Below, one piece after another: positions 2,900 to 57,620 of a stretch of DNA of 64,000 nucleotides. Made by a program: the position numbers and the translations under genes. Each line of letters begins with the position of its first letter. Position 1 is the first letter of the stretch. A model generated the notes under the pieces. That model was given only the letters and a program-made list of their open reading frames with translations. It searched no databases and had not been told where the DNA came from. This DNA is from Burkholderiales bacterium (lineage in GTDB: Bacteria > Pseudomonadota > Gammaproteobacteria > Burkholderiales > JACQAP01): NCBI GenBank assembly GCA_035548375.1, contig DASZTG010000022.1, positions 14,232-78,231 on the forward strand. Reading direction: 5' to 3'.

Positions 2900-3883
2900 A
2901 TGGGCCGAATCCTCCTGATCGCGATGGGTACCGTCCTGCTGCTGGCTTCGCAGCCACAGGCCGGCTTTGCCGCCAGCTACGACGATGCCAGCAAGGCGTT
3001 CAAGCAGGGCAACTACGCCGACGCGCTGGAAAAGGTGGAAACGGTCATCGCCGCCAACCCCCGGGACGCGCGCGCACGCTTCCTCAAGGGCCTGATCCTG
3101 ACCGAGCAGAACAAGCCGGCGGACGCCATCAAGGTATTCACCGCGCTCACCGAGGACTATCCCGAGTTGCCGGAGCCCTACAACAACCTGGCCGTGCTCT
3201 ACGCCTCGCAGGGGCAATACGAAAAAGCCCGCAAATCGCTGGAAATGGCCATCCGCACGCATCCGAGCTACGCGATCGCGCACGAGAACCTCGGGGACGT
3301 CTACGCGAAAATGGCGAGCGAAGCCTACGACAAGGCCTTGCAGCTCGATAGAAGCAACGCCGCCGCCCAGACCAAGCTCGCCATGATCAAGGACTTGTTC
3401 TCGGGCAGCGTCGTTCCCGGCAAGGGATCGCCCGAGACCGAAACCGCCGCGAATACGCCCGCGAACACGCCCGCGAGCACCCCGGACAAGCCGGCGGCGA
3501 CTTCGACGAAGCCCGCCGCGTCGGTATTCACGCCCGCGAAAGGCGACCCGGAAGCGGTGCTGGCGGCCGTCAACGGCTGGGCCAAGGCGTGGTCCGGCAA
3601 GAATCCGGATGCCTACCTGGCCTACTACGCGCCCAATTTCCAGGTTCCCGGCGGCGAGGCGCGCGCGAACTGGGAAACCACGCGGCGCGACCGCATCGTT
3701 CGGCCCAAGATGATCGAGGTCACCATCGGCTCTCCCAAGGTCACTTTCGATGCCAGCGGGCGCGCGATCGTGAAATTCCGCCAGGGCTACCGCTCCGATA
3801 CCCTCAACACCTCCGGTGCCAAGACCCTCCTGCTCGTCAAGAACAGCGACCGCTGGCAGATCCTCCAGGAAAGAATGAATTAG
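2900..3883 (+). CDS. Secreted TPR-repeat protein with C-terminal NTF2/SnoaL-like domain
   Basis: 327-aa ORF. Signal peptide (MGRILLIAMGTVLLLASQPQAGFA), several TPR repeats, Pro/Thr/Ala-rich linker, C-terminal domain (W..AW.....AYL.YY...F) that is paralogous to the C-terminus of the next gene. Confidence 0.85.
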   Translation: MGRILLIAMGTVLLLASQPQAGFAASYDDASKAFKQGNYADALEKVETVIAANPRDARARFLKGLILTEQNKPADAIKVFTALTEDYPELPEPYNNLAVLYASQGQYEKARKSLEMAIRTHPSYAIAHENLGDVYAKMASEAYDKALQLDRSNAAAQTKLAMIKDLFSGSVVPGKGSPETETAANTPANTPASTPDKPAATSTKPAASVFTPAKGDPEAVLAAVNGWAKAWSGKNPDAYLAYYAPNFQVPGGEARANWETTRRDRIVRPKMIEVTIGSPKVTFDASGRAIVKFRQGYRSDTLNTSGAKTLLLVKNSDRWQILQERMN

Positions 3884-5115
3884 TGAACGGTTCGTCGCGA
3901 CGCAGCCAGGCCGGATCCCGCCAGACATTTGCCCAGGCCCTGGTGGCCATCGTCGCCGCCAGCGCTTCCTTTGCCTGGGCGATGACCATTACGCCTGCGC
4001 CGATCGCGCGCCAGATCACCGCACCGGAGGCCATGCTGGTGCGGGCGCTGCTCGACATCAGCGACAGCAAGTTCTCGTCGGCCTTCGACCAGATCGACAG
4101 CCTGCTTTCGTCCAATCCGAATTTCCGGCTGGCACAATTGATCAAGGGCGACCTGCTGCTGGCGCGCGCGCGGCCGATCAATTCGATAGGCAACGCATCC
4201 GGCGCATCGGCCGAGCAGGTGGCGGGCCTGCGTGATGAGGCCAGGATCCGCCTGCTGCGCTCGCAGATCGAGCCGTCTTCCGAGGTGGCGCCGCGCTACC
4301 TGCTGCAGCTTCCGGAAAAGCAGAAGCTGGCGCTGGTGCTCGACTCGACCAAGTCGACGCTGTTCGTGTTCGAGAATTCGGGCAAGACGCCGCGCTACGT
4401 CGCGGACTATTACGTCACCATCGGCAAGAACGGCCTGGAGAAATTCCGCGAAGGCGACAAGCGCACGCCGGTCGGCGTCTACCACGTGGTCAGCCAGTTG
4501 CCGAAGGACAAGCTGACGGCCTTCTACGGCAGCGGCGCCTATCCGATCAGCTATCCGAACGAATGGGACCAGTTGCGCGGGCGCGACGGCCACGGCATCT
4601 GGCTGCACGGCACGCCGCGCGATACCTACAGCCGGCCGCCGCGCGCGAGCGACGGCTGCATCGTGCTGACCAACCAGGACCTCGAAACGCTGGCTGCAAA
4701 GCTCCAGATCGGCTCGACGCCCATCGTCATCGCCGACTCGATCGACTGGGCGAAACCGCGCGAGATCGAGTCCCTGCGTTCGGACTTGTCCAGCTCGATC
4801 GAAAGCTGGCGCCGTGACTGGGAAAGCCGCAGCACCGATGCCTATCTGGGACACTATGCGCACAAATTCATGTCCAACGGCATGAACCTGTCGGCATGGG
4901 CGGCGCAGAAGCGCCAGGTCAACGCCGGCAAGAACTGGATCAAGGTGCGGATTTCCGACCTGTCCATCCTGCTCTACCCGGGCAAGGAAGAAATCGCCGT
5001 GGCGACCTTCGAACAGTCCTACGACAGCAACAACCTCTCCAATCGCATGATGAAGCGCCAGTACTGGATACGCGAGAACAACAAGTGGCGCATCGTCTAC
5101 GAAGGCGCGGCCTAG
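3883..5115 (+). CDS. L,D-transpeptidase (YkuD family)
   Basis: YkuD catalytic signature HGIWLHGTP...SDGCIVL. I chose the GTG start at 3883 (TAGTG overlap with the upstream stop) because it precedes a signal-like segment ([16 protein letters not shown]). The track ORF from 3589 overlaps the previous gene out of frame. Confidence 0.85.
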
Positions 5116-5176
5116 GACCGGCGGCACCGCCGAATCGCAAGCAAGGTTCGATCAATCGCAGTCTCAAGGAACACCG

Positions 5177-5740
5177 ATGAATAGAATACTGGGGCTTTTC
5201 ATTGCCCTGTCGTTGAGCACCGGCGCGTTCGCCGCCGATCCGCAGGTGGAGATCAAGACCAACCTGGGCGCGATCGTCGTCGAGCTGAACCCCGCCAAGG
5301 CACCGAAAACCGTGGAGAATTTCCTGCGGTACGTACGCGACGGCTTCTACGACAACGCCGTGTTCCATCGCGTCATCCCGGGCTTCATGATCCAGGGCGG
5401 CGGCTTCACCAAGGCGATGACGCAGAAGCCGACGCGCGATCCGGTTGCGCTGGAATCCAGCAACGGCCTGCAAAACGACAAAGGCACGATCGCGATGGCG
5501 CGCACGTCGAATCCGAACTCCGCGACCGCGCAATTCTTCATCAACGTGGCGGACAACGCCTTCCTGAATTACCGCCCGGGAACGCCGGGCTACGCGGTAT
5601 TCGGCAAGGTGGTAAAGGGCATGGACGTCGTCGACAAGATCGCGGCATTGCCGACGGGTCCCGGCGGGCCGTTCCCGCAGGACGTGCCGCAACAGCAGGT
5701 CGTCATCGAAAGCGCGAAGGTCCTGGAGGAAGCGAAATGA
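5177..5740 (+). CDS. ppiA: Peptidyl-prolyl cis-trans isomerase A, periplasmic cyclophilin
   Basis: 187-aa ORF with signal peptide (…STGAFAADP) and cyclophilin motifs ([22 protein letters not shown]). Confidence 0.93.
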
Positions 5741-6234
5741 GCAAGGTCAAGATGCAGACGTCGATGGGCGACTTCGTCATAGAAGTCGACTCCGCGAAGG
5801 CGCCGGTCACGGCGGAGAACTTCCTGCAGTACGTACGCGACGGCTTCTACGACAACACCGTGTTCCACCGCGTCATCAACGGTTTCATGGTCCAGGGCGG
5901 CGGCTTCGAACCCGGCATGAAGCAGAAAACGACGCGGGAGCCGATCGAGAACGAGGCCGCAAACGGGCTGAAGAACGACGCCTACAGCGTTGCCATGGCG
6001 CGCACCTCGGATCCGCATTCCGCCACCGCGCAATTCTTCGTCAACGTCGTCAACAACAATTTCCTGAATTTCCGCTCGGCGAGCCCGGATGGATTCGGCT
6101 ATTGCGTATTCGGCACGGTGGTGGAAGGCCGCGATGTCGTGGACAAGATCAAGGCCGTGCAGACCGGCAGCCGCAATTTCCACCAGGACGTGCCGACGAC
6201 GGACGTCGTGATCAAGAAAGCCGAAGTCGTGTGA
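5737..6234 (+). CDS. ppiB: Peptidyl-prolyl cis-trans isomerase B, cytoplasmic cyclophilin
   Basis: 165-aa ORF, no signal peptide, cyclophilin motifs ([22 protein letters not shown]). ATGA overlap with ppiA. Confidence 0.93.
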
Positions 6235-6986
6235 GCCCGCCCGGCGGCACCGGCACCCGAGCTCCGCATACGCTGTTCATTTCGGACCTGCATCTCGCAG
6301 CCGATACGCCGGCCGCCAACGAAACGCTGCTGAGATTCCTGCGCAGCACGGCGCGCACCGCGGACGCTTTATACGTGCTGGGCGACCTGTTCGACTACTG
6401 GATCGGCGACGACACCCTGAAGCAGCCGTTTGAAGGCAAGATCGCGGGCGCCTTTCGCGAACTCGTCGATTCAGGCGTTCCGGTCTACTTCATGCACGGC
6501 AACCGCGACTTCCTGATCGGCAGGCGCTTCGCGCGCGCGTCGGGCATGAAGCTCCTGCGCGATCCCACGCTGATCGACCTGTATGGCTCTGCGACCCTGC
6601 TGATGCATGGCGATACCCTTTGCACCGGCGACGTCGACTACCTGAAGTTCCGCAAGTACGCGCGCAATCCGGTCGCACAGTGGCTGTTCCTGCGCAAATC
6701 CCTGGCGAAGCGGCTGCAGATCGCGCACGACCTGCGCGGAAAAAGCGAGCACGCGAAAAGCGGCAAGGACATGGCAATCATGGACGTGGCGCCGAAAGCC
6801 GTCGAGGACGAGTTACGCGCGCACAAGTATCCGCGCCTGATCCACGGCCACACGCATCGCCCCGCCCGGCACGAGCACACGGTCGACGGCCGCGTTTGCG
6901 AGCGCTGGGTGCTGGCGGACTGGTACGAGCACGGCTCCTACCTCGAATGCGATGCCAGGGGTTGCCGTCCCCAGCCCATGCCCTGA
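6231..6986 (+). CDS. lpxH: UDP-2,3-diacylglucosamine diphosphatase
   Basis: Calcineurin-like metallophosphoesterase motifs typical of LpxH ([38 protein letters not shown]). GTG start at 6231 overlaps the ppiB stop. The upstream part of the track ORF (from 6102) lies inside ppiB. Confidence 0.9.
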
Positions 6987-6998
6987 TCGGGGTTCCGC

Positions 6999-8180
6999 TC
7001 AGATTTTCGCCAGGCCGCGCGCGAGATCCGCACGAATGTCGGCGACCGCTTCCAGGCCCACCGCCACCCTCAGCAATCCTTCGCCGATGCCTGCCGCCTG
7101 GCGCACTTCGGGCGAGACACGCCCGTGTGTCGTGCTGGCCGGATGCGTGATCGTGGTCTTGGCGTCGCCGAGATTGGCGGTGATCGAAATCAGTTGCGTC
7201 GAATCGACGACTCGCCATGCCTCGTCGCGGCCGCCCTTGACGTCAAAGGACACGATGCCGCCGCCGCTTTTCTGCTGGCGCAAAGCGAGCGCGTGCTGCG
7301 GATGCGAAGGCAGTCCGGGATAGTAGACGCGCTCCACCTTGGGATGGCTTTCGAGCCACTCCGCCAGCTCAAGCGCGGATTGCGAATGCGCGCGCATGCG
7401 CAGGCTCAGCGTTTCGAGGCCCTTGAGGATGACCCAGGCGTTGAAAGCCGAAAGCGTCGGCCCCCCGCTGCGCAGGAAACCGTTCAGGCCCTCGAAGATG
7501 ACATCGCGGCGCCCCAGGACCGCGCCGCCCAGCACGCGCCCTTGCCCGTCGAGATATTTGGTCGCGGAATGGATGACGATGTCGGCGCCGAGTTCGAGCG
7601 GCTTCTGCAGGACCGGCGAGCAAAAACAGTTGTCGACGACGAGCAGAACGCCGCGGGCCCGCGCCACCTTGGCCAGCGCCGAAACATCGGAAATTTCCGT
7701 GAGCGGATTGGAAGGCGTCTCCAGGAACATCAGGCGCGTATTCGGACGAATCGCGCCTTCCCACGCTGCGACGTCGGTTGCGGAAACGAAAGTCGTCTCG
7801 ACGCCGAAGCGCTTGAGGATGTTGCCGAACAGCTGCACCGTTGCGCCGAAAATACTGCGCGAAGCGACGATGTGTTCCCCGGCTTTCATCAATCCCATGA
7901 CACAGGCGAGGATCGCGGACATGCCGGACGCGGTGGCGAGACAGCATTCCGCGCCTTCCATCGCCGCCAGGCGCTCCTGCAGGGCCGCGACCGTGGGATT
8001 CGTGTAGCGCGAGTACACCATGCCGGCGTCTTCGCCGGAAAAACGCGCGGCGGCCTCGGCTGCATCCTTGAACACGAAGCTCGAGGTGAGGTACATCGCC
8101 TCGGAATGCTCGTTGAACTGGCTGCGGCGTATGCCGGCGCGGACTGCCAGCGTGTCCGGCTCGAGTTCGTCCCAACGCAT
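6999..8180 (-). CDS. metZ: O-succinylhomoserine sulfhydrylase (Cys/Met-metabolism PLP enzyme)
   Basis: 393-aa ORF. N-terminus ...DTLAVRAG..RS.F.EHSEAMYLTSSFVF and PLP-lysine motif HSATKYLDGQG. Confidence 0.9.
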   Translation of the reverse strand: MRWDELEPDTLAVRAGIRRSQFNEHSEAMYLTSSFVFKDAAEAAARFSGEDAGMVYSRYTNPTVAALQERLAAMEGAECCLATASGMSAILACVMGLMKAGEHIVASRSIFGATVQLFGNILKRFGVETTFVSATDVAAWEGAIRPNTRLMFLETPSNPLTEISDVSALAKVARARGVLLVVDNCFCSPVLQKPLELGADIVIHSATKYLDGQGRVLGGAVLGRRDVIFEGLNGFLRSGGPTLSAFNAWVILKGLETLSLRMRAHSQSALELAEWLESHPKVERVYYPGLPSHPQHALALRQQKSGGGIVSFDVKGGRDEAWRVVDSTQLISITANLGDAKTTITHPASTTHGRVSPEVRQAAGIGEGLLRVAVGLEAVADIRADLARGLAKI

Positions 8181-8382: not shown

Positions 8383-9903
8383 TCATTCCGTGGTGGCGAG
8401 GTTCAGGTCGAGCTGCGTGACACTGGTTTCGGGGCCGTTGAGCCTGCCATCGTTGCGCTCGGCCTCGACCCCGGCGAGATATTCCGGCGTGATGTCGCCG
8501 GTGACGTAGACGCCGTTGAAGCAGGACGTCTCGAAGCCGGGCACGGCGGGGTTCACCGACTTGACGTCCTTCACCAGGGCATCCAGATCCTGGTAGATCA
8601 GCCGGTCGGCACCGATCTCGCGGGCGATTTCGTCATCGCTGCGCCCCGTGGCGATCAACTCGCGTGAGGTCGGCATGTCTATCCCGTATACATTGGGGTA
8701 GCGCACCGGCGGCGCGGCGGACGCGAAATACACCTTGCGCGCGCCGGCATCCCGCGCCATCTGCACGATTTCGCGGCTCGTGGTCCCGCGCACGATGGAA
8801 TCGTCCACGAGCAGCACGTTCTTGTCCTTGAACTCCATGCCGATCGCGTTGAGCTTGTGGCGCACGGATTTCTTGCGCACTTCCTGGCCCGGCATGATGA
8901 AGGTGCGGCCGATGTAGCGATTCTTGATGAAGCCCTCGCGGTAGGGCTTCCCGAGTTTCTCCGCGAGCTCCATGGCGGAAGGCCGGCTCGAATCCGGAAT
9001 CGGGATCACGACGTCGATTTCCAGGTCGCTGTGATCGCGCCGGATTTTCTCGGCGAGGCTCGTGCCCATGCGCATGCGCGTCTCGTAGACGGAGATGCCG
9101 TCGATGACCGAATCCGGACGCGCCAGGTAGACGAATTCGAAAATACAGGGATTGAGCTGCGGGGCGGCCGCGCATTGGCGGCTGTAGAAGCTGCCCTCGA
9201 AATCGATGAAGATCGCCTCGCCCGGCGCGACATCGCGCACCCGCTCGAAGCCCAGCGTATCGAGCGCGACGCTTTCGGACGCGATCATGTATTCCGCGCT
9301 GTCGCCGCTCTTCGCCATGCCCACGACCAGCGGCCGGATGCCGAACGGATCGCGGAACGCGAGCAGGCCGTAGCCCGCGATCATCGCCACGACGGCGTAG
9401 GCGCCCCGGCACCTGCGATGCACGCCGGAGACGGCCTGGAAAATGGTCGGCGGATCGAGCTGGTAGCCCTTGGCCGCTTCCTGCAGCTCGTGCGCCAGGA
9501 CGTTCAGCAACACTTCGGAATCGGAATTGGTATTCACGTGGCGCAAGTCCTGACGGAACATCTCGCGCTTGAGTTGCTCGGAGTTGGTGAGGTTGCCGTT
9601 GTGGCCGAGCACGATGCCGAAGGGTGAATTGACGTAGAGCGGCTGCGCTTCGGCGAAGGAGGTGGCAGAACCTGCCGTGGGGTAGCGGCAATGGGCAATG
9701 CCCATGTTGCCGCCGAGCTGGCGCATGTCGCGCGTGCGGAACACGTCGCGAACCAGGCCCCCGCCCTTGTGCATGTGGAAGCGACTGCCGTCGGCGGTGA
9801 CGATGCCGGCGGCGTCCTGGCCCCTGTGCTGGAGCACCAGCAGCCCGTCGTACAGCAGCTGGTTGACCGGAGTTTTGGCGACGACGCCGAGGATTCCACA
9901 CAT
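8383..9903 (-). CDS. purF: Amidophosphoribosyltransferase
   Basis: 506-aa ORF. N-terminal nucleophile MCGI(L)GV, glutamine amidotransferase class II domain, PRTase motif ([13 protein letters not shown]). Confidence 0.97.
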
Positions 9904-38998: not shown

Positions 38999-39006
38999 GC
39001 TTTCGC

Positions 39007-39036
39007 GTGAAGAGTGAAGGGTGAAGGGTGAAGGGT
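39007..39036. repeat. Heptamer tandem repeat (GTGAAGG-like, 4 copies) immediately upstream of dcd
   Basis: gtgaaga gtgaagg gtgaagg gtgaagg gt on the plus strand (CCTTCAC x4 in the dcd sense), ending 9 nt before the dcd ATG. A second short tandem (cctcccg x2) lies at 39091-39104. Confidence 0.8.
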
Positions 39037-39063
39037 AAAAACCGGCAGGCACGGGCGTGCCGG
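39037..39063 (-). terminator. Intrinsic terminator after apbC
   Basis: Minus strand CCGGCACGCCCGTGCCTGCCGG followed by TTTTTA. GC-rich stem(s) (CCGGCA/TGCCGG, GGCAC/GTGCC). Confidence 0.55.
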
Positions 39064-39122
39064 GGCGCTTTGCGTGGTGAACGCCTCGAGCCTCCCGCCT
39101 CCCGCCTGACCCATCGCTCGCC

Positions 39123-40211
39123 TCACGTGTTCTGAACCACGATCTTCGGGAAAGCCGTGCTGTGGTCGCGGGCCAGGTCGGCAATGCGTGCGGCCACCTT
39201 GCGCGCGATCTCCCGATAAATCTGCGCGGACCGGCTTTCGGGTTCCGCGACGACGGTCGGCTTCCCGGAATCCGCACTCTCGCGGATCTTGATGTCCAGC
39301 GGCAGGCTGCCGAGCACCTCGACCTTGTAGTCCGCGCTCATGCGCGAAGCGCCGCCTTCGCCAAAGATGTGCTCCTCGTGCCCGCAGTTCGAACAGACGT
39401 GCACGCTCATGTTTTCGACGATGCCGAGGATGGGCACGCCGACCTTCTCGAACATCTTGAGGCCCTTGCGCGCGTCGATCAGCGCGATGTCCTGGGGCGT
39501 GGTGACGATAACGGCGCCGGTGAGCGGAACCTTTTGCGAGAGCGTCAGCTGGATGTCGCCGGTGCCGGGCGGCAGGTCGACGACCAGATAATCGAGGTCA
39601 TTCCATTTCGTATCGCGCAACAGCTGCTCCAGAGCCTGGGTGACCATCGGCCCGCGCCAGACCATGGGCGTATCGACGTCGATCAGCACGCCAATCGACA
39701 TGGCCTGCACGCCGTGGTTGACCATCGGCTCGATGGCCTTGCCGTCCGGCGACATCGGCTTGCCGGTCAAGCCCATCATCACCTGCTGCGAAGGGCCGTA
39801 GATGTCGGCATCCAGGATGCCGACCTTGGCCCCTTCGGCGGCGAGCGCCAGCGCCAGGTTCACCGCGGTGGTCGATTTGCCGACGCCGCCCTTGCCGGAG
39901 GCCACGGCGATGACGTTTCGCACGCCGCCCAGCAGCTTGAGCCCGCGCTGGACGGCGTGGGCGACGATCTTGAACTCGACATTCACATCGACCTTGCCGA
40001 CGCCCGGGATGCGGCCGATGCGCTCCGCCAGCTCGTGGCGAATGCCTTCGAGCACGCTTTTCGCGGGGTAGCCGAGCACTATGTCGAGCGCGACGTCATT
40101 GCCGTCGATGCGGATGTTCCGGGCTTCCTTGCCGGCGACATAGTCCTTTCCGGTGACCGGATCGGTGAACGTCTGGAGGGCTGCCTTGACCTGCTCTTCG
40201 CTGATCGCCAT
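39123..40211 (-). CDS. apbC: Fe-S cluster carrier ATPase ApbC/Mrp (NBP35 family)
   Basis: 362-aa ORF. N-terminal DUF59-like domain, deviant Walker A ([10 protein letters not shown]), CxxC motif (VCSNCGHE). Confidence 0.95.
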
Positions 40212-51281: not shown

Positions 51282-52010
51282 ATGCGCACCATCAACCTCG
51301 CCGGCTACAAGTTCGTATCGCTGGACCGTCTAGACGACCTCAAGAAACGCCTGGAACGAAAATGCGAAAGCCTCGGACTCAAGGGCACGATCCTGTTGAG
51401 TTTCGAGGGCATCAACATCGTGCTGGCCGGCGCGGAAGATGCGACACGGAAATTCGAGGCCTTCCTGGGCGAAGACAACCGCTTCGCCGGATTGCGTTTC
51501 AAGCGCAGCATCTCGGCCTTCCAGCCTTTCGAACGCATGCTGGTGAAGATCAAGCGGGAGATCATCACACTGCGCGTGCCTGGGCTGGATCCGGCGAAAG
51601 AGCGGGCGCCCACCATCGCGCCGGTGGAACTCAGGCGCTGGCTGGACGAAGGCCGTGATGTCGTCCTGCTCGATACGCGCAATGCTTTCGAGGTCGATGC
51701 CGGCACGTTCAACAATGCGCTGGACTTGAGGCTGAGCGCCTTCGGGCAGTTCGCGGATGCCGTCGAAGCGCTCGACCCGGCACTGAAGGACAAGACCCTC
51801 GTGACCTTCTGCACCGGCGGCATCCGCTGCGAAAAAGCGGCGCCGGTACTCATCAACAAGGGCTTCAGGAACGTCTTCCAGCTCGACGGCGGCATCCTGC
51901 AGTATTTCGAAGACTGCGGCGACGCCCATTTCCGCGGCAACTGTTTCGTTTTCGACCAGCGCGTGGCGCTGGACGGCAAACTCGAGCCGCAGATCGCGAG
52001 CCGTCCGTGA
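51282..52010 (+). CDS. trhO: Rhodanese-domain protein, UPF0176/TrhO (tRNA U34 hydroxylase) family
   Basis: 242-aa ORF. N-terminal YKF…L…GINI… region and rhodanese active-site loop CTGGIRCEKA. Confidence 0.82.
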   Translation: MRTINLAGYKFVSLDRLDDLKKRLERKCESLGLKGTILLSFEGINIVLAGAEDATRKFEAFLGEDNRFAGLRFKRSISAFQPFERMLVKIKREIITLRVPGLDPAKERAPTIAPVELRRWLDEGRDVVLLDTRNAFEVDAGTFNNALDLRLSAFGQFADAVEALDPALKDKTLVTFCTGGIRCEKAAPVLINKGFRNVFQLDGGILQYFEDCGDAHFRGNCFVFDQRVALDGKLEPQIASRP

Positions 52011-52918
52011 GCAGCCCGCGCGAGACCCGCCGCGCGGTGATCGTCCTCGTCCTGCTCGTCATCCTGTGGGGTTATAGCTGGATCACGTCGAAGATCGGCC
52101 TCGGATACGCGAGCCCGATCGACGTCGTCGCCCTGCGCCTGGAACTCGGCATTCTTACGTTGCTGGCGGGGCTGATCTGGACACGCAGGTCGCTGCGGCC
52201 CGAGCATTGGAAGGCCTTGTTGCTGATCGGCCTGGTGCAGACCGGCGCCTTCCTGCTGCTGAACACGTGGGCGCTGTCGGAAGGAGGTCCGGGCAAAACG
52301 TCGATCCTCGTGTTCACCATGCCGTTCTGGGTGCTCGTGTTCGCGTGGCCGATGCTGCATGAGCGCATCCACGGCCTGCAATGGGTTTCCGTAGCACTTG
52401 CGATCGCCGGCCTCGTGTTCGTACTCGAGCCGTGGCAAATGCACACGTCGCTATTCAGCAAGACGCTCGCCGTCATCGCCGGCATGTGCTGGGCAATCGG
52501 CGTGATCTACGCGAAACAACTGCACAACCGCGCGAAAGTGGAGCCGCTCGCCTTCACGTTCTGGCAGATGATCGTCGGCCTGCTGCCGGTGCTCGTGTGC
52601 CAGGCCGTGATCGAGCGGCCGTCCGTGGTCTGGTCGGGCACGTTCATCGGCGTCACGCTGTTCAACGGCATCATGGCGACCGGCGTGGGCTGGCTGGCGT
52701 GGCTCTACGTGCTGCATCGCCTGCCCGCCGGCACGACCAGCCTGTCGTCGCTGGGCATTCCGGTGATCGCAATTTTTTCCTCCTGGATCCAGCTCGGCGA
52801 ACGCCCGGGCAGCTCCGAGTTGACGGGCATGTTGCTGATCGGCCTGGCGCTCGCATTGCTCTCCTACCTGAGCATCCGCCGCCATGAAGAACCGGAACCG
52901 ATGACGGGTCAAGAATAA
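52007..52918 (+). CDS. EamA/DMT-family transporter
   Basis: 303-aa ORF, 10 hydrophobic segments in two EamA-like halves. ATGA-type overlap with the upstream gene. Confidence 0.85.
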   Translation: MSSPRETRRAVIVLVLLVILWGYSWITSKIGLGYASPIDVVALRLELGILTLLAGLIWTRRSLRPEHWKALLLIGLVQTGAFLLLNTWALSEGGPGKTSILVFTMPFWVLVFAWPMLHERIHGLQWVSVALAIAGLVFVLEPWQMHTSLFSKTLAVIAGMCWAIGVIYAKQLHNRAKVEPLAFTFWQMIVGLLPVLVCQAVIERPSVVWSGTFIGVTLFNGIMATGVGWLAWLYVLHRLPAGTTSLSSLGIPVIAIFSSWIQLGERPGSSELTGMLLIGLALALLSYLSIRRHEEPEPMTGQE

Positions 52919-52936
52919 GGCTGGTAAATTCAATTC

Positions 52937-53420
52937 TGAACCACGGAGAACACGGAGAGCACGGAGAAATGCAGAATGAACGACGATGAACTGGGGACGC
53001 TCCTAATAGGTTGCGCGATCCAGGTACACCGGACGCTCGGTCCCGGTCTACTGGAAAGCGTGTACGAGACCTGCTTGCTCCACGAACTAGGAGAAACTGG
53101 GGTCGAAGTCAAAAAGCAGGTGGTCGTTCCTTTTGTCTACGACGAAATCAAGTTCGACAAAGGATTCAGAATCGATGTCCTGTTTGGTCATCGAGTTATT
53201 GTGGAAATAAAAGCGGCCGAAAAGCTGCTACTCATACATTCTGCTCAAGTTCTCACCTATCTAAAGCTTTCTAATCTGCGAATTGGATATCTCCTGAACT
53301 TTAATGTGATCCAACTACGCCAAGGCGGCATCAAGCGCCTAGTGAACGGATGATCTCCTCGATCAATCAGTTGCACCAAAGCCATTTTTTCTCCGTGCCC
53401 TCCGTGTTCTCCGTGGTTCA
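52937..53420. mobile_element. Low-GC gene cassette bounded by 33-bp inverted repeats made of 9-bp tandem units
   Basis: Left arm 52937-52969 is tgaaccacggagaacacggagagcacggagaaa. The right arm 53388-53420 is its reverse complement with 1 mismatch in 33. Each arm is three 9-nt units (NCACGGAGA). The arms enclose one 125-aa ORF whose G+C is visibly lower (about 43% in a hand-counted 60-nt line) than the flanking genes. Confidence 0.75.
52976..53353 (+). CDS. GxxExxY protein (PD-(D/E)XK nuclease-like, PDDEXK_3 family)
   Basis: 125-aa ORF. GLLESVY matches the GxxExxY signature near the N-terminus. RIDVLF…VIVEIKA matches a D…ExK nuclease-type core. The size is typical of this family. Confidence 0.8.
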   Translation: MNDDELGTLLIGCAIQVHRTLGPGLLESVYETCLLHELGETGVEVKKQVVVPFVYDEIKFDKGFRIDVLFGHRVIVEIKAAEKLLLIHSAQVLTYLKLSNLRIGYLLNFNVIQLRQGGIKRLVNG

Positions 53421-53427
53421 TTTTTAA

Positions 53428-54291
53428 ATGAAGTCCAGTAATTCAGTCTTTCTTTCCGTTCGCGGCGTGCGCTACCACGTGCGCACCTGGGGCGACGAGC
53501 GCGCGCCGAAGCTCTTCCTGCTGCATGGCTGGATGGACGTGTCGGCATCGTTCCAGTTCGCGGTCGACGAGTTGCGCCACAACTGGCACGTCATCGCGCC
53601 GGACTGGCGCGGATTCGGGCTGTCGGAATGGACGAACCAGGGTTACTGGTTTCCCGACTACATCGCGGATCTCGACGCGCTGCTCGATCACTTCCAGCCC
53701 GAGGCGCCGGCCTACATCGTCGGCCACAGCATGGGCGGCAACGTGGCGAATCTTTACGCGGGCATACGCCCGGATCGCGTCGGCAAGCTGGTACTCGCGG
53801 AAGGCTTCGGCCTGCCACCGGGTAAAGCCGAGAAGGCGCCCGAGCGCTACGCAAAATGGCTGGACGAATATCGCGACCCGCCGTCGCTGCGCCCATATGC
53901 CAACTTCGAGGAAGTCGCGCAACGCCTGAAGCAGAACAATCCGCGCATGAGCGACGAGCACGCACGTTATCTCGCGCCGCACTGGGCCGAACAGCTCGCG
54001 GACGGCAGTATCCGGCTGCGCGCCGATCCGCTGCACAAGATGGTCAACCCCGTGCTCTACCGCGTGGAAGAAGCGATGGCCTGCTGGAAACGCATCGCAG
54101 CACCGGTACTCTGGTTGTGGGGCGACGGCGAGTGGATGATGAAGTGGATGCGCGGTGACAAGGCGCTGATTGACAGTTACCGCGCCTGCTACCGATCGCT
54201 CACCGAGGAAACCATCGCGGACGCGGGGCACATGATGCATCACGACCAGCCCGCGGAGTTCGCGCGGGCGGTCGAATCGTTCATGTACTGA
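53428..54291 (+). CDS. Alpha/beta-fold hydrolase
   Basis: 287-aa ORF. Oxyanion-hole HG (LLHGWMD), nucleophile elbow GHSMGG, C-terminal His (DAGHMMHHDQP). Confidence 0.85.
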   Translation: MKSSNSVFLSVRGVRYHVRTWGDERAPKLFLLHGWMDVSASFQFAVDELRHNWHVIAPDWRGFGLSEWTNQGYWFPDYIADLDALLDHFQPEAPAYIVGHSMGGNVANLYAGIRPDRVGKLVLAEGFGLPPGKAEKAPERYAKWLDEYRDPPSLRPYANFEEVAQRLKQNNPRMSDEHARYLAPHWAEQLADGSIRLRADPLHKMVNPVLYRVEEAMACWKRIAAPVLWLWGDGEWMMKWMRGDKALIDSYRACYRSLTEETIADAGHMMHHDQPAEFARAVESFMY

Positions 54292-55465: not shown

Positions 55466-55473
55466 CTCAGCCT

Positions 55474-55684
55474 TGAACCACGGAGGACACGGAGAACACG
55501 GAGGAATTCAGGGCACAGAAAATTGAGCGGAGCAAGTAAGCTGGACAATCGTGACCCTTGGTGCCGTGAGCAGCGTGGCCCTGATTTGCATCGGCGAGAT
55601 CACGGCTTGGGCTGAAACCAAAAGGTCATTCTTACTGGCGCCCTCTCGTCTTTTCTCCGTGCACTCCGTGCCCTCCGTGGTTCA
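55474..55684. repeat. Gene-less sibling of the CACGGAG-armed element (MITE-like)
   Basis: Left arm 55474-55506 is tgaaccacggaggacacggagaacacggaggaa. The right arm 55651-55684 is the reverse complement of tgaaccacggagggcacggagtgcacggagaaaa. Same terminal tgaacc and 9-nt CACGGAG units as at 52937/53420, but with only ~144 bp of non-coding core. It fills the metY-MFS spacer almost exactly. Confidence 0.75.
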
Positions 55685-56975: not shown

Positions 56976-56983
56976 TGGGAATC

Positions 56984-57103
56984 CGTAACTGTCGTGACTA
57001 TCGTGACTGTCGTGACTATCGTAAATATCGTTACTATTTGACTGTGGTCAAGGACGTGAATGTCGTAAATATCGCATTGGTTACGGCAGTCACGACAGTC
57101 ACG
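56984..57103. repeat. 9-bp tandem array (CGTGACTNT-like) with inverted partner arm upstream of metY
   Basis: Six to seven phased 9-mers from 56984 (cgtaactgt cgtgactat cgtgactgt cgtgactat cgtaaatat cgttactat…). 57083-57103 (acggcagtcacgacagtcacg) is the reverse complement of 57002-57022 with 2 mismatches. Internal direct repeat cgtaaatatcg at 57020 and 57064. Central palindrome TTGAC-tgtg-GTCAA at 57038-57051. Confidence 0.75.
57024..57051 (-). promoter_or_regulatory. Candidate sigma70 promoter for metY inside the repeat element
   Basis: Minus strand TTGACC-N16-GATATT. This would place the 9-mer array in the metY 5' UTR. Pattern only. Confidence 0.3.
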
Positions 57104-57118
57104 TCTTTTCCGTCACGC

Positions 57119-57147
57119 ATATTGAGGTCGCCTCGCGACCTCAATAT
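57119..57147 (-). terminator. Perfect 13-bp hairpin spanning the stop codon of the CoA-binding protein gene
   Basis: atattgaggtcgc-ctc-gcgacctcaatat. The stop codon (57141-57143) lies inside the 3' arm on the plus strand. No U-run follows, so the terminator function is uncertain. Confidence 0.4.
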
Positions 57148-57620
57148 GGCAACCACGTCGGGCGTTTCGCGGAAATGACCTTGGTGTTGACGCCAACCCA
57201 GTTGAGCCCGCCGAACAACCGCCCATGCTCGATTTTCACGCAGCGATCCTGCACCACTTCGAGGCCTGCCTTGCGCGCCTTGTCCGCGGCCTTTTCGTTC
57301 ATGACGCCGAGCTGCATCCATAGCACTTTCGCGCCGATGGCAATGGCGTCGTCGGCGATCGGCTCGATCTCGCTGCTCTTGCGGAAGCAATCGACGATGT
57401 CGACTTTCTCCGGAATGTCCTTCAGCGACTTGTAGCATTTCTCGCCGAGGATTTCCGGATAGGACGGGTTCACCGGAATGACGCGGTAGCCGTGCTCCTG
57501 CATGTACTTTGCGGCGAAGAAGCTCGGCCGGAACCAGTTCGCGGACAACCCGACCACCGCGATGGTCTTGTACTGGCGGAGCATGCGGCGCAGGGCGTTG
57601 ATATCGGTGGAATCGCTCAT
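57141..57620 (-). CDS. CoA-binding domain protein (YccU-like)
   Basis: 159 aa from MSDSTDINALRRMLRQYKTIAVVGLS…RPS…YM…GY.VIPVNP (CoA_binding_2 pattern). The upstream 20 codons of the track ORF were not needed. Confidence 0.85.
   Translation of the reverse strand: MSDSTDINALRRMLRQYKTIAVVGLSANWFRPSFFAAKYMQEHGYRVIPVNPSYPEILGEKCYKSLKDIPEKVDIVDCFRKSSEIEPIADDAIAIGAKVLWMQLGVMNEKAADKARKAGLEVVQDRCVKIEHGRLFGGLNWVGVNTKVISAKRPTWLPY

Follow-up and report, generated by a model that had tools for sequence, protein, structure and literature searches.

In the 64,000 nucleotides of a Burkholderiales bacterium that we analyzed (GCA_035548375.1, contig DASZTG010000022.1, positions 14,232 to 78,231 of the forward strand; hereafter the window, to which all unassigned coordinates refer), we found a 484-base low-GC cassette at 52937-53420. 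It consists of a gene for a small Cas4-like nuclease bracketed by inverted arms, each made of three 9-base units. We consider it somewhat probable that a selfish element that is dispersed and bounded by a stem resides here and that the cassette is one of its copies; such an element has the form of the intervening sequences (IVS) known from 23S rRNA genes and an organization similar to that of REPIN-RAYT systems (repetitive extragenic palindrome [REP] doublets and their associated transposase).

The initial annotation of this region had proposed near-perfect 33-bp inverted repeats built from 9-nt CACGGAG units around a single 125-aa open reading frame (ORF) of the GxxExxY type, and this description holds. 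The left arm (TGAACCACGGAGAACACGGAGAGCACGGAGAAA, 52937..52969, + strand) has the form TGAACC(CACGGAGNN)x3, in which TGAACC is followed by three CACGGAG heptamers with 2-nt spacers and by AAA, and it agrees at 32 of 33 bases with the reverse complement of the right arm (53388..53420, + strand); a repeat finder could extend the arm pair to 42 nt at 88% identity. The sole credible ORF inside the cassette is the cargo gene at 52976..53353 (+ strand). It lies between two host genes of the same strand, one for an EamA-family transporter (52007..52918), whose synteny is kept in the relatives L204-L206 and L212, and one for an alpha/beta hydrolase (53428..54291), with orthologues that are 79-86% identical. 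As annotated, 18 nt separate the EamA stop codon from the left arm, and the right arm is followed by 7 nt (TTTTTAA) and then by the hydrolase ATG, with no purine-rich Shine-Dalgarno motif in this interval. The inward-reading strand of the arms is itself purine-rich and Shine-Dalgarno-like, and the third CACGGAG unit of the left arm provides a GGAG (52963-52966) 9 nt 5' of the ATG of the cargo gene.

The low G+C content suggested by the annotation is evident along the whole cassette, with values of 0.43-0.53 compared to 0.62-0.67 in the flanks (0.48 for the cargo gene alone compared to 0.64). The sequence CACGGAGNNCACGGAG occurs eight times in the window, whereas 0.04 occurrences are expected and eight were reached in none of 100 shuffles; all eight fall into two inverted pairs. 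In the predicted RNA fold of 52900-53460 (-203 kcal/mol, z = -6.8) the arms pair with each other as a long outer stem, and the same outer stem is obtained when the region is folded as single-stranded DNA (z = -5.9). A promoter and terminator scan of the cassette returned no promoter, and the arm itself was the sole terminator-like feature. Rfam contained no family for any of the hairpins, either at gathering or at E-value thresholds.

The annotation had further taken the cassette to be self-contained and had proposed a search for additional copies. This search returned the second element of the window, which has the same arms (described below), and contig L121 (1,174 bp), which stems from a related sample. 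L121 holds an identical cassette beside an unrelated gene. Even the variable spacers of the two arms agree, and the identity with the window begins exactly at TGAACC. In single-sample Logan contigs from another run, the assembly was interrupted at the cassette ends: contig L344 includes 30 nt (k-1) of the left arm and stops there, and contig L123 begins inside the right arm. Likewise, contig L346 begins inside an arm of the second element. Such breaks are typical of de Bruijn assemblers at repeats. Arms and gene are one unit that is present in at least two genomic contexts, and together with the foreign base composition this bears out the view of a self-contained cassette. The window stems from a metagenome-assembled genome (MAG), so that a chance repeat or an assembly artefact had to be considered. 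However, the pattern lies far above chance and the structure recurs across independent assemblies and samples, which refutes this explanation and leaves it a negligible probability.

We sampled 80 metagenomic GxxExxY loci, of which 77 genes were testable for inverted flanks at a score threshold of at least 14. Inverted flanks were detected for 57 of the 77 genes; none of the 231 shuffles and one of the 44 displaced controls reached the threshold. The arms are composed of tandem 8-10-nt units of the type C-R-C-N-R-A-G in 51 of 60 elements, with variants such as CACGAAG, CACAGAG, CGCAGAG, CGCAAAG, CACCAAG, and CGCCGAG. CRCNRAG-type tandem arms flank about three quarters of the sampled GxxExxY genes. 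The unit type of a cassette coincided with that of other arrays in the same locus at a frequency of 0.32 compared to an expected 0.10, a value exceeded in none of 2000 permutations, and the G+C content of the GxxExxY gene was below that of its flanks in 52 of 56 loci. The arms are also found around other cargo. We identified a gene for a four-helix-bundle protein (TIGR02436; L146 1282-1945) and a GIY-YIG gene (PF01541; L068 1965-2612) within inverted arms of 7-nt tandem units; the latter locus has an additional inner 50-nt inverted repeat. In the literature we found no description of these arms or of the arm sequence, and GxxExxY or PF13366 was mentioned only incidentally. The hairpin-forming repeat family is very widespread and apparently undescribed.

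We then searched a single genome of each species for exact triplets of CACGGAG units. This pattern is present in at least 119 genomic stretches, among them 60 convergent pairs, i.e. a plus arm followed by a minus arm, with inner lengths of 20-1674 nt (below 700 nt in 58 of the 60 listed pairs). Paired arms are present in at least nine phyla, namely Pseudomonadota, Acidobacteriota, Verrucomicrobiota, Planctomycetota, Gemmatimonadota, Spirochaetota, Myxococcota, Bacteroidota, and Actinomycetota. Their consensus is T-K-M-A-C, three invariant 7-mers with purine-rich 2-nt spacers, and an A-rich tail. One MAG (UBA2271) contains three copies of a 165-nt ORF-less element with unrelated flanks. Nested elements are frequent, and other units were encountered as well (CACGGGG, CACGAAG, CGCAAAG, ACAGGATGA). 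ORF-less hairpins with the same arms far outnumber the gene-bearing ones, and they are dispersed over many phyla and sometimes nested. Terminal inverted repeats and multiple dispersed copies, by which miniature inverted-repeat transposable elements (MITEs) and transposons with terminal inverted repeats are recognized, are both present. Some pattern matches, e.g. in Streptomyces and in Chthoniobacter flavus (L059), turned out to be coding HGD/HGE repeats and were rejected as elements. Distances from arms to start and stop codons over 60 elements are confounded by spurious ORFs in high-GC DNA and were not used. Hairpins within the loops of hairpins with different units were observed at L006 3746-3969, L094 5376-5551, L046 3122-3305, and L065 ~4100-4260, the last of which belongs to the cultured strain Dokdonella fugitiva A3, whose nested hairpins contain no ORF.

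The window itself contains further hairpins of this kind. The second element (55474..55684, no strand assigned) lies 2 kb from the cassette and has arms of the TGAACC(CACGGAGNN)x3 type (55474-55506 and 55652-55684, 33 nt, 88%) around 145 nt, in which there is neither an ORF nor a remnant of a GxxExxY gene. It is placed between the stop codon of a metY-like gene and the start codon of a major facilitator superfamily (MFS) gene, both on the - strand, and relative L204 has an element at the orthologous position. A third hairpin (56984..57103, no strand assigned) is built from a different 9-nt unit, CGTGACTNT (CGTGACT), with ~6 copies on one arm, and stops 8 nt before the start codon of the metY-like gene on the - strand; a separate terminator-like hairpin is located just upstream of it at ~57120-57150. 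These three clear hairpins all lie between same-strand genes, with the pyrimidine-rich arm stopping 7-8 nt before the next start codon. In addition, a degenerate pair of arrays of 7-nt units (GTGAAGG x 4 and CGCCTCC x 3.7) is located at 39004-39125 between two - strand genes; it encloses a GC hairpin with a T-run, and its pyrimidine-rich array stops 7 nt before the next start. Taking the window (53421-53427, 55466-55473, 56976-56983) and L204-L206 (~3490) together, the distance from the 3' arm to the next start is 7-11 nt, and the genes that follow these intercistronic hairpins have a weak Shine-Dalgarno motif or none, irrespective of unit type.

Comparison of the eamA-hydrolase spacer among relatives gave information on the history of the cassette. 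In L204-L206 synteny is retained and the hydrolase is 79-83% identical, and a GxxExxY gene is absent. Instead, the spacer of these relatives (110-235 nt) is occupied by hairpins of CGTGAAT and CGTGAC units without an ORF, which stop 7-9 nt before a hydrolase start codon that lacks a Shine-Dalgarno motif. Two other lineages carry in the same spacer a GxxExxY gene that is 80-81% identical at the protein level and flanked by CACGGAG arms, in one case with extra nested hairpins. Presence and absence are interleaved, in that the hydrolase of the gene-bearing L211 is 91% identical to that of the gene-less L204 and 84% to that of the window. The dN of the cassette gene, 0.10-0.13, equals that of the hydrolase at saturated synonymous sites, and sequence comparison indicates that the gene is under purifying selection with invariant catalytic residues. 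The syntenic cassettes at 80-81% identity, together with the low dN at saturated synonymous sites, therefore indicate that the cassette has long resided, maintained by selection, in a spacer with hairpin turnover and is not a fresh insertion. The mobile insertion proposed by the annotation stands insofar as the unit has a second context and relatives differ in its presence; the idea of a recent insertion does not agree with the syntenic 80-81% cassettes and purifying selection.

The regular placement of these hairpins brings up the main rival, according to which they are host-owned intercistronic structures like REP sequences or bacterial interspersed mosaic elements (BIMEs). Tandem-unit hairpins would then act as operon punctuation, by stabilizing or processing mRNA or by tuning translation of the next cistron, and the GxxExxY gene would be an ordinary resident that happens to lie inside one of them. 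The three window hairpins, with their position between same-strand genes 7-8 nt before the next start and the similar arrangement at 39004-39125, fit such a role, as does the fact that the L204-L206 spacers always hold a hairpin 7-9 nt before a hydrolase ATG without Shine-Dalgarno motif. The syntenic cassette in several lineages and its purifying selection are in line with it, too. Host ownership is difficult to reconcile with the identical cassette in the unrelated flank of L121, with the dispersed copies in unrelated flanks and the nested elements, with a low G+C content that persists across loci, and with the replacement of unit types between close relatives; moreover, the cargo genes encode small nucleases and not regulators. 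We regard this explanation as unlikely.

Several results also weigh against the interpretation of the cassette as a resident selfish element. Empty sites in the eamA-hydrolase spacers of relatives, which the annotation had suggested as a check, were not found: every relative examined has some hairpin in the spacer, and the gene-less ones hold a hairpin of different tandem units. At this locus the cassette has the appearance of an old element that is passed on mainly vertically. Target-site duplications were not consistent: they are absent from the window elements as well as from L207 and L212, while in UBA2271 one copy shows a direct repeat of 6 nt (TTCATC) and the remaining two copies agree at 4 of 6 positions. 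Among the GxxExxY loci, arm type tracks protein similarity weakly (p about 0.06). Mismatches between the arms were not significantly biased towards G-U on the sense strand (66 vs 49, p = 0.14), so that selection for an RNA stem is not demonstrated. Furthermore, the spacer dinucleotides of two paired CACGGAG arms agree in 51% of cases compared to 39.5% by chance; since they barely pair above chance, the 7-mers are conserved as sequence and not just as pairing partners. Finally, among the 43 listed CACGGAG elements with an inner region of at least 60 nt, a GxxExxY gene is present in only three (that of the window and one each in MAGs of a planctomycete and of a member of the Gemmatimonadales), and gene remnants were found in none of the others. 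Derivation of the ORF-less elements from gene-bearing copies is therefore not shown.

This excess of ORF-less hairpins without remnants would be expected if the nuclease gene alone were a homing-type selfish gene that colonizes pre-existing hairpins, the arms being part of the host hairpin. Such a scenario would also accommodate that the same spacer occurs with or without a gene in its hairpin and that three unrelated small cargo families reside in such hairpins. However, the two identical copies share their full arms and variable spacers, with identity stopping at the arm ends, and orthologous cassettes retain CACGGAG arms at 80% protein identity. We consider independent homing of the gene quite improbable and continue to favor the dispersed, stem-bounded element.

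The cargo protein matches TIGR04256 (GxxExxY) at 6.9e-39 with 132.8 bits (curated cut-off 35) and PF13366 (PDDEXK_3) at 1.6e-38 with 132.1 bits (curated cut-off 22), in agreement with the annotation. Its GxxExxY motif reads G24-L-L-E27-S-V-Y30, and residues E27, D67, E77, and K79 are invariant in alignments of 13 and 51 sequences. The AlphaFold model (pLDDT 95) shows the order helix-helix-strand-strand-strand-helix-strand-strand. Its best structural neighbours are the Cas4 proteins SSO0001 and Pcal_0546, with weak Foldseek E-values of ~3e-3, and other top PDB neighbours, at similarly weak E-values (~3e-3), are lambda-exonuclease-like proteins and restriction enzymes; a sequence search of the PDB with the cargo protein gave no match. 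Profile matches, invariant residues, and the modelled structure place the protein among the small PD-(D/E)XK nucleases, with a predicted restriction-endonuclease-like alpha/beta fold and a Cas4-like core. It shares with Cas4, the CRISPR adaptation nuclease, this core fold and the catalytic D...ExK, besides the best structural matches and a faint match to the hidden Markov model. In contrast to Cas4, it has only 125 aa, lacks the Fe-S cluster module, and has no cas neighbours. An assignment to a known defence-system or phage protein was rejected, as PADLOC returned faint Cas4 matches only and PHROGs none. At another, metagenomic GxxExxY locus (L154 3019-3216), a CRISPR array of three repeats (Rfam CRISPR-DR49) lies ~650 nt downstream of the gene.

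The PDDEXK_3/GxxExxY family comprises 33,739 cluster representatives at 50% clustering (E <= 0.001), and its function was given as unknown in the one survey we found. With 266-295 aa, the top family representatives (P0241-P0252) contain two GxxExxY domains, possibly as a result of read-through of adjacent cassettes into a single ORF, since two frames of the arms are free of stop codons.

The annotation compared the cassette to stem-bounded intervening sequences, and this likeness is apt. The 23S IVS of Coxiella has 428 nt and a 28-bp stem, with three tandem heptamers (GACAGAT x 3) directly upstream of its ORF; RNase III cleaves inside this stem, and 23S intervening sequences have long been suspected to be selfish or mobile (PMC4990558). 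With the IVS of Coxiella, Leptospira, and Salmonella the window cassette has in common a size of ~0.4-0.5 kb, complementary termini that form a stem of ~30 bp, and one small ORF directly after the 5' arm, as well as, in the case of Coxiella, tandem short units in the arm. It differs in that it is located between the eamA and hydrolase genes and not in 23S helix 25 or 45, in that its cargo is a PD-(D/E)XK nuclease and not the four-helix-bundle S23p, and in its many ORF-less relatives. Identity as an rRNA IVS is ruled out by location, as no rRNA was found in the window, and by cargo, while the architecture is the same. Of the occupants that the annotation had named for 23S IVS, the four-helix-bundle proteins are documented in the literature; for GxxExxY proteins this could not be verified, and none of 40 sampled GxxExxY loci lies inside an rRNA gene.

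A second parallel is offered by the REPIN-RAYT systems, reportedly described by Nunvar in 2010 and by Bertels and Rainey in 2011 and 2023. RAYT is an HUH/Y1 transposase of the IS200/IS605 type, and REPs are palindromic and dispersed as hairpin doublets. Here, too, a small nuclease-type gene is flanked by an inverted repeat that is also dispersed as intergenic ORF-less hairpins, the enzyme gene is long kept at a syntenic site, and the repeat variants are genome-specific. Unlike RAYT, the window enzyme is of the PD-(D/E)XK type, with PDDEXK_3 as its sole match, and is not an HUH Y1 transposase; the arms are tandem 7-10-nt units instead of a REP palindrome, the gene has a G+C content below that of the host, and the family is distributed over mixed phyla.

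Further elements share individual traits. The Correia/NEMIS elements of Neisseria are MITEs that are processed at the RNA level, and foldback elements have inverted ends of tandem units. Like these, the CACGGAG family has terminal inverted repeats, is intergenic and multicopy, would be co-transcribed with its neighbours, forms hairpins that are candidate RNase III sites, and has arms of short tandem units, but it has no DDE transposase partner or clear target-site duplication, and its CRCNRAG unit design is conserved across phyla. The cyanobacterial STRR (short tandemly repeated repetitive) heptamer arrays, said to have been reported by Mazel in 1990 and Vioque in 1997, e.g. in helix P12 of RNase P RNA, are likewise tandem 7-nt units that lengthen helices of stable RNAs as inverted arrays. 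They consist of other units and occur in other taxa, and we know of no nuclease cargo described for them. An integron gene cassette was ruled out, since arms are present both 5' and 3' of the ORF, whereas an attC would be single and 3' and belong to an array beside an integrase; here the neighbours are housekeeping genes without an integrase.

If the cassette is a dispersed selfish element, its ends would be the inverted arms, T-K-M-A-C followed by (CACGGAG + 2 nt) x 3, and its cargo the putative small PD-(D/E)XK nuclease of the GxxExxY family. No promoter was found in the cassette, which would have none of its own and depend on read-through transcription that enters from eamA. Ribosomes could bind at the innermost GGAG unit to translate the nuclease gene. 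Once transcribed, the arms would pair into a 33-bp duplex that may be cut by RNase III by analogy to the 23S intervening sequences, and such cutting would render the insertion harmless and separate the flanking cistrons. The nuclease might act on the DNA of arms or hairpins in order to copy or maintain the family, as RAYT does for REPINs. This would provide a concrete model of a small nuclease working together with its own hairpin family. The arms additionally offer a simple sequence signature for the annotation of tandem-unit elements, which break short-read assemblies and sit directly before start codons.

A more far-reaching idea, which we put forward tentatively and hold to be rather doubtful, is that GxxExxY, small GIY-YIG, and four-helix-bundle proteins are enzymes or partners of pan-bacterial REPIN-like replicators with tandem CRCNRAG-type ends. 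The classical 23S rRNA intervening sequences, whose origin and mobility have been debated since about 1990, would then merely be the rRNA-resident subset of these replicators, and the purine-rich arms would double as portable ribosome-binding leaders. If true, the latter property would explain single arms directly 5' of phage genes.

Among the viral contigs of IMG/VR, at least 120 stretches carry the same arm, which is usually single; a partner arm is present in 7 of the 120 listed loci. Single unpaired arms of the form GTTTAAC(CACGGAGNN)x3 are frequent in these contigs (L221-L340). One contig (L243, IMG/VR UViG_3300009185_000039) has arms at 3393-3417, 5744-5768, and 8690-8714. In a phage contig with a lambda-type portal gene, the C-terminal residues of the portal protein are translated from an arm located 8 nt 5' of the following ATG, and the arm also occurs in frame (FNHGGHGEHGGG) within a 1,570-aa ORF of that phage. 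The placement of arms in phages is consistent with purine-rich arms that act as portable ribosome-binding leaders.

Two additional loci deserve mention. In Nibricoccus sp. IMCC34717 (L119 ~6980-7260), a tRNA 3' end (…GGTTCGAATCCCTCCCTCTCCGCCA) is present twice, ~210 nt apart, and each copy is directly followed by a CACGGAG-type arm, which gives the locus the appearance of an integration junction. In relative L205, the MFS/metY neighbourhood on the downstream side of the hydrolase is replaced at 4426-7864 by PIN, HTH (helix-turn-helix), N6/N4 methylase, and ResIII helicase genes, a set that looks like a defence island.
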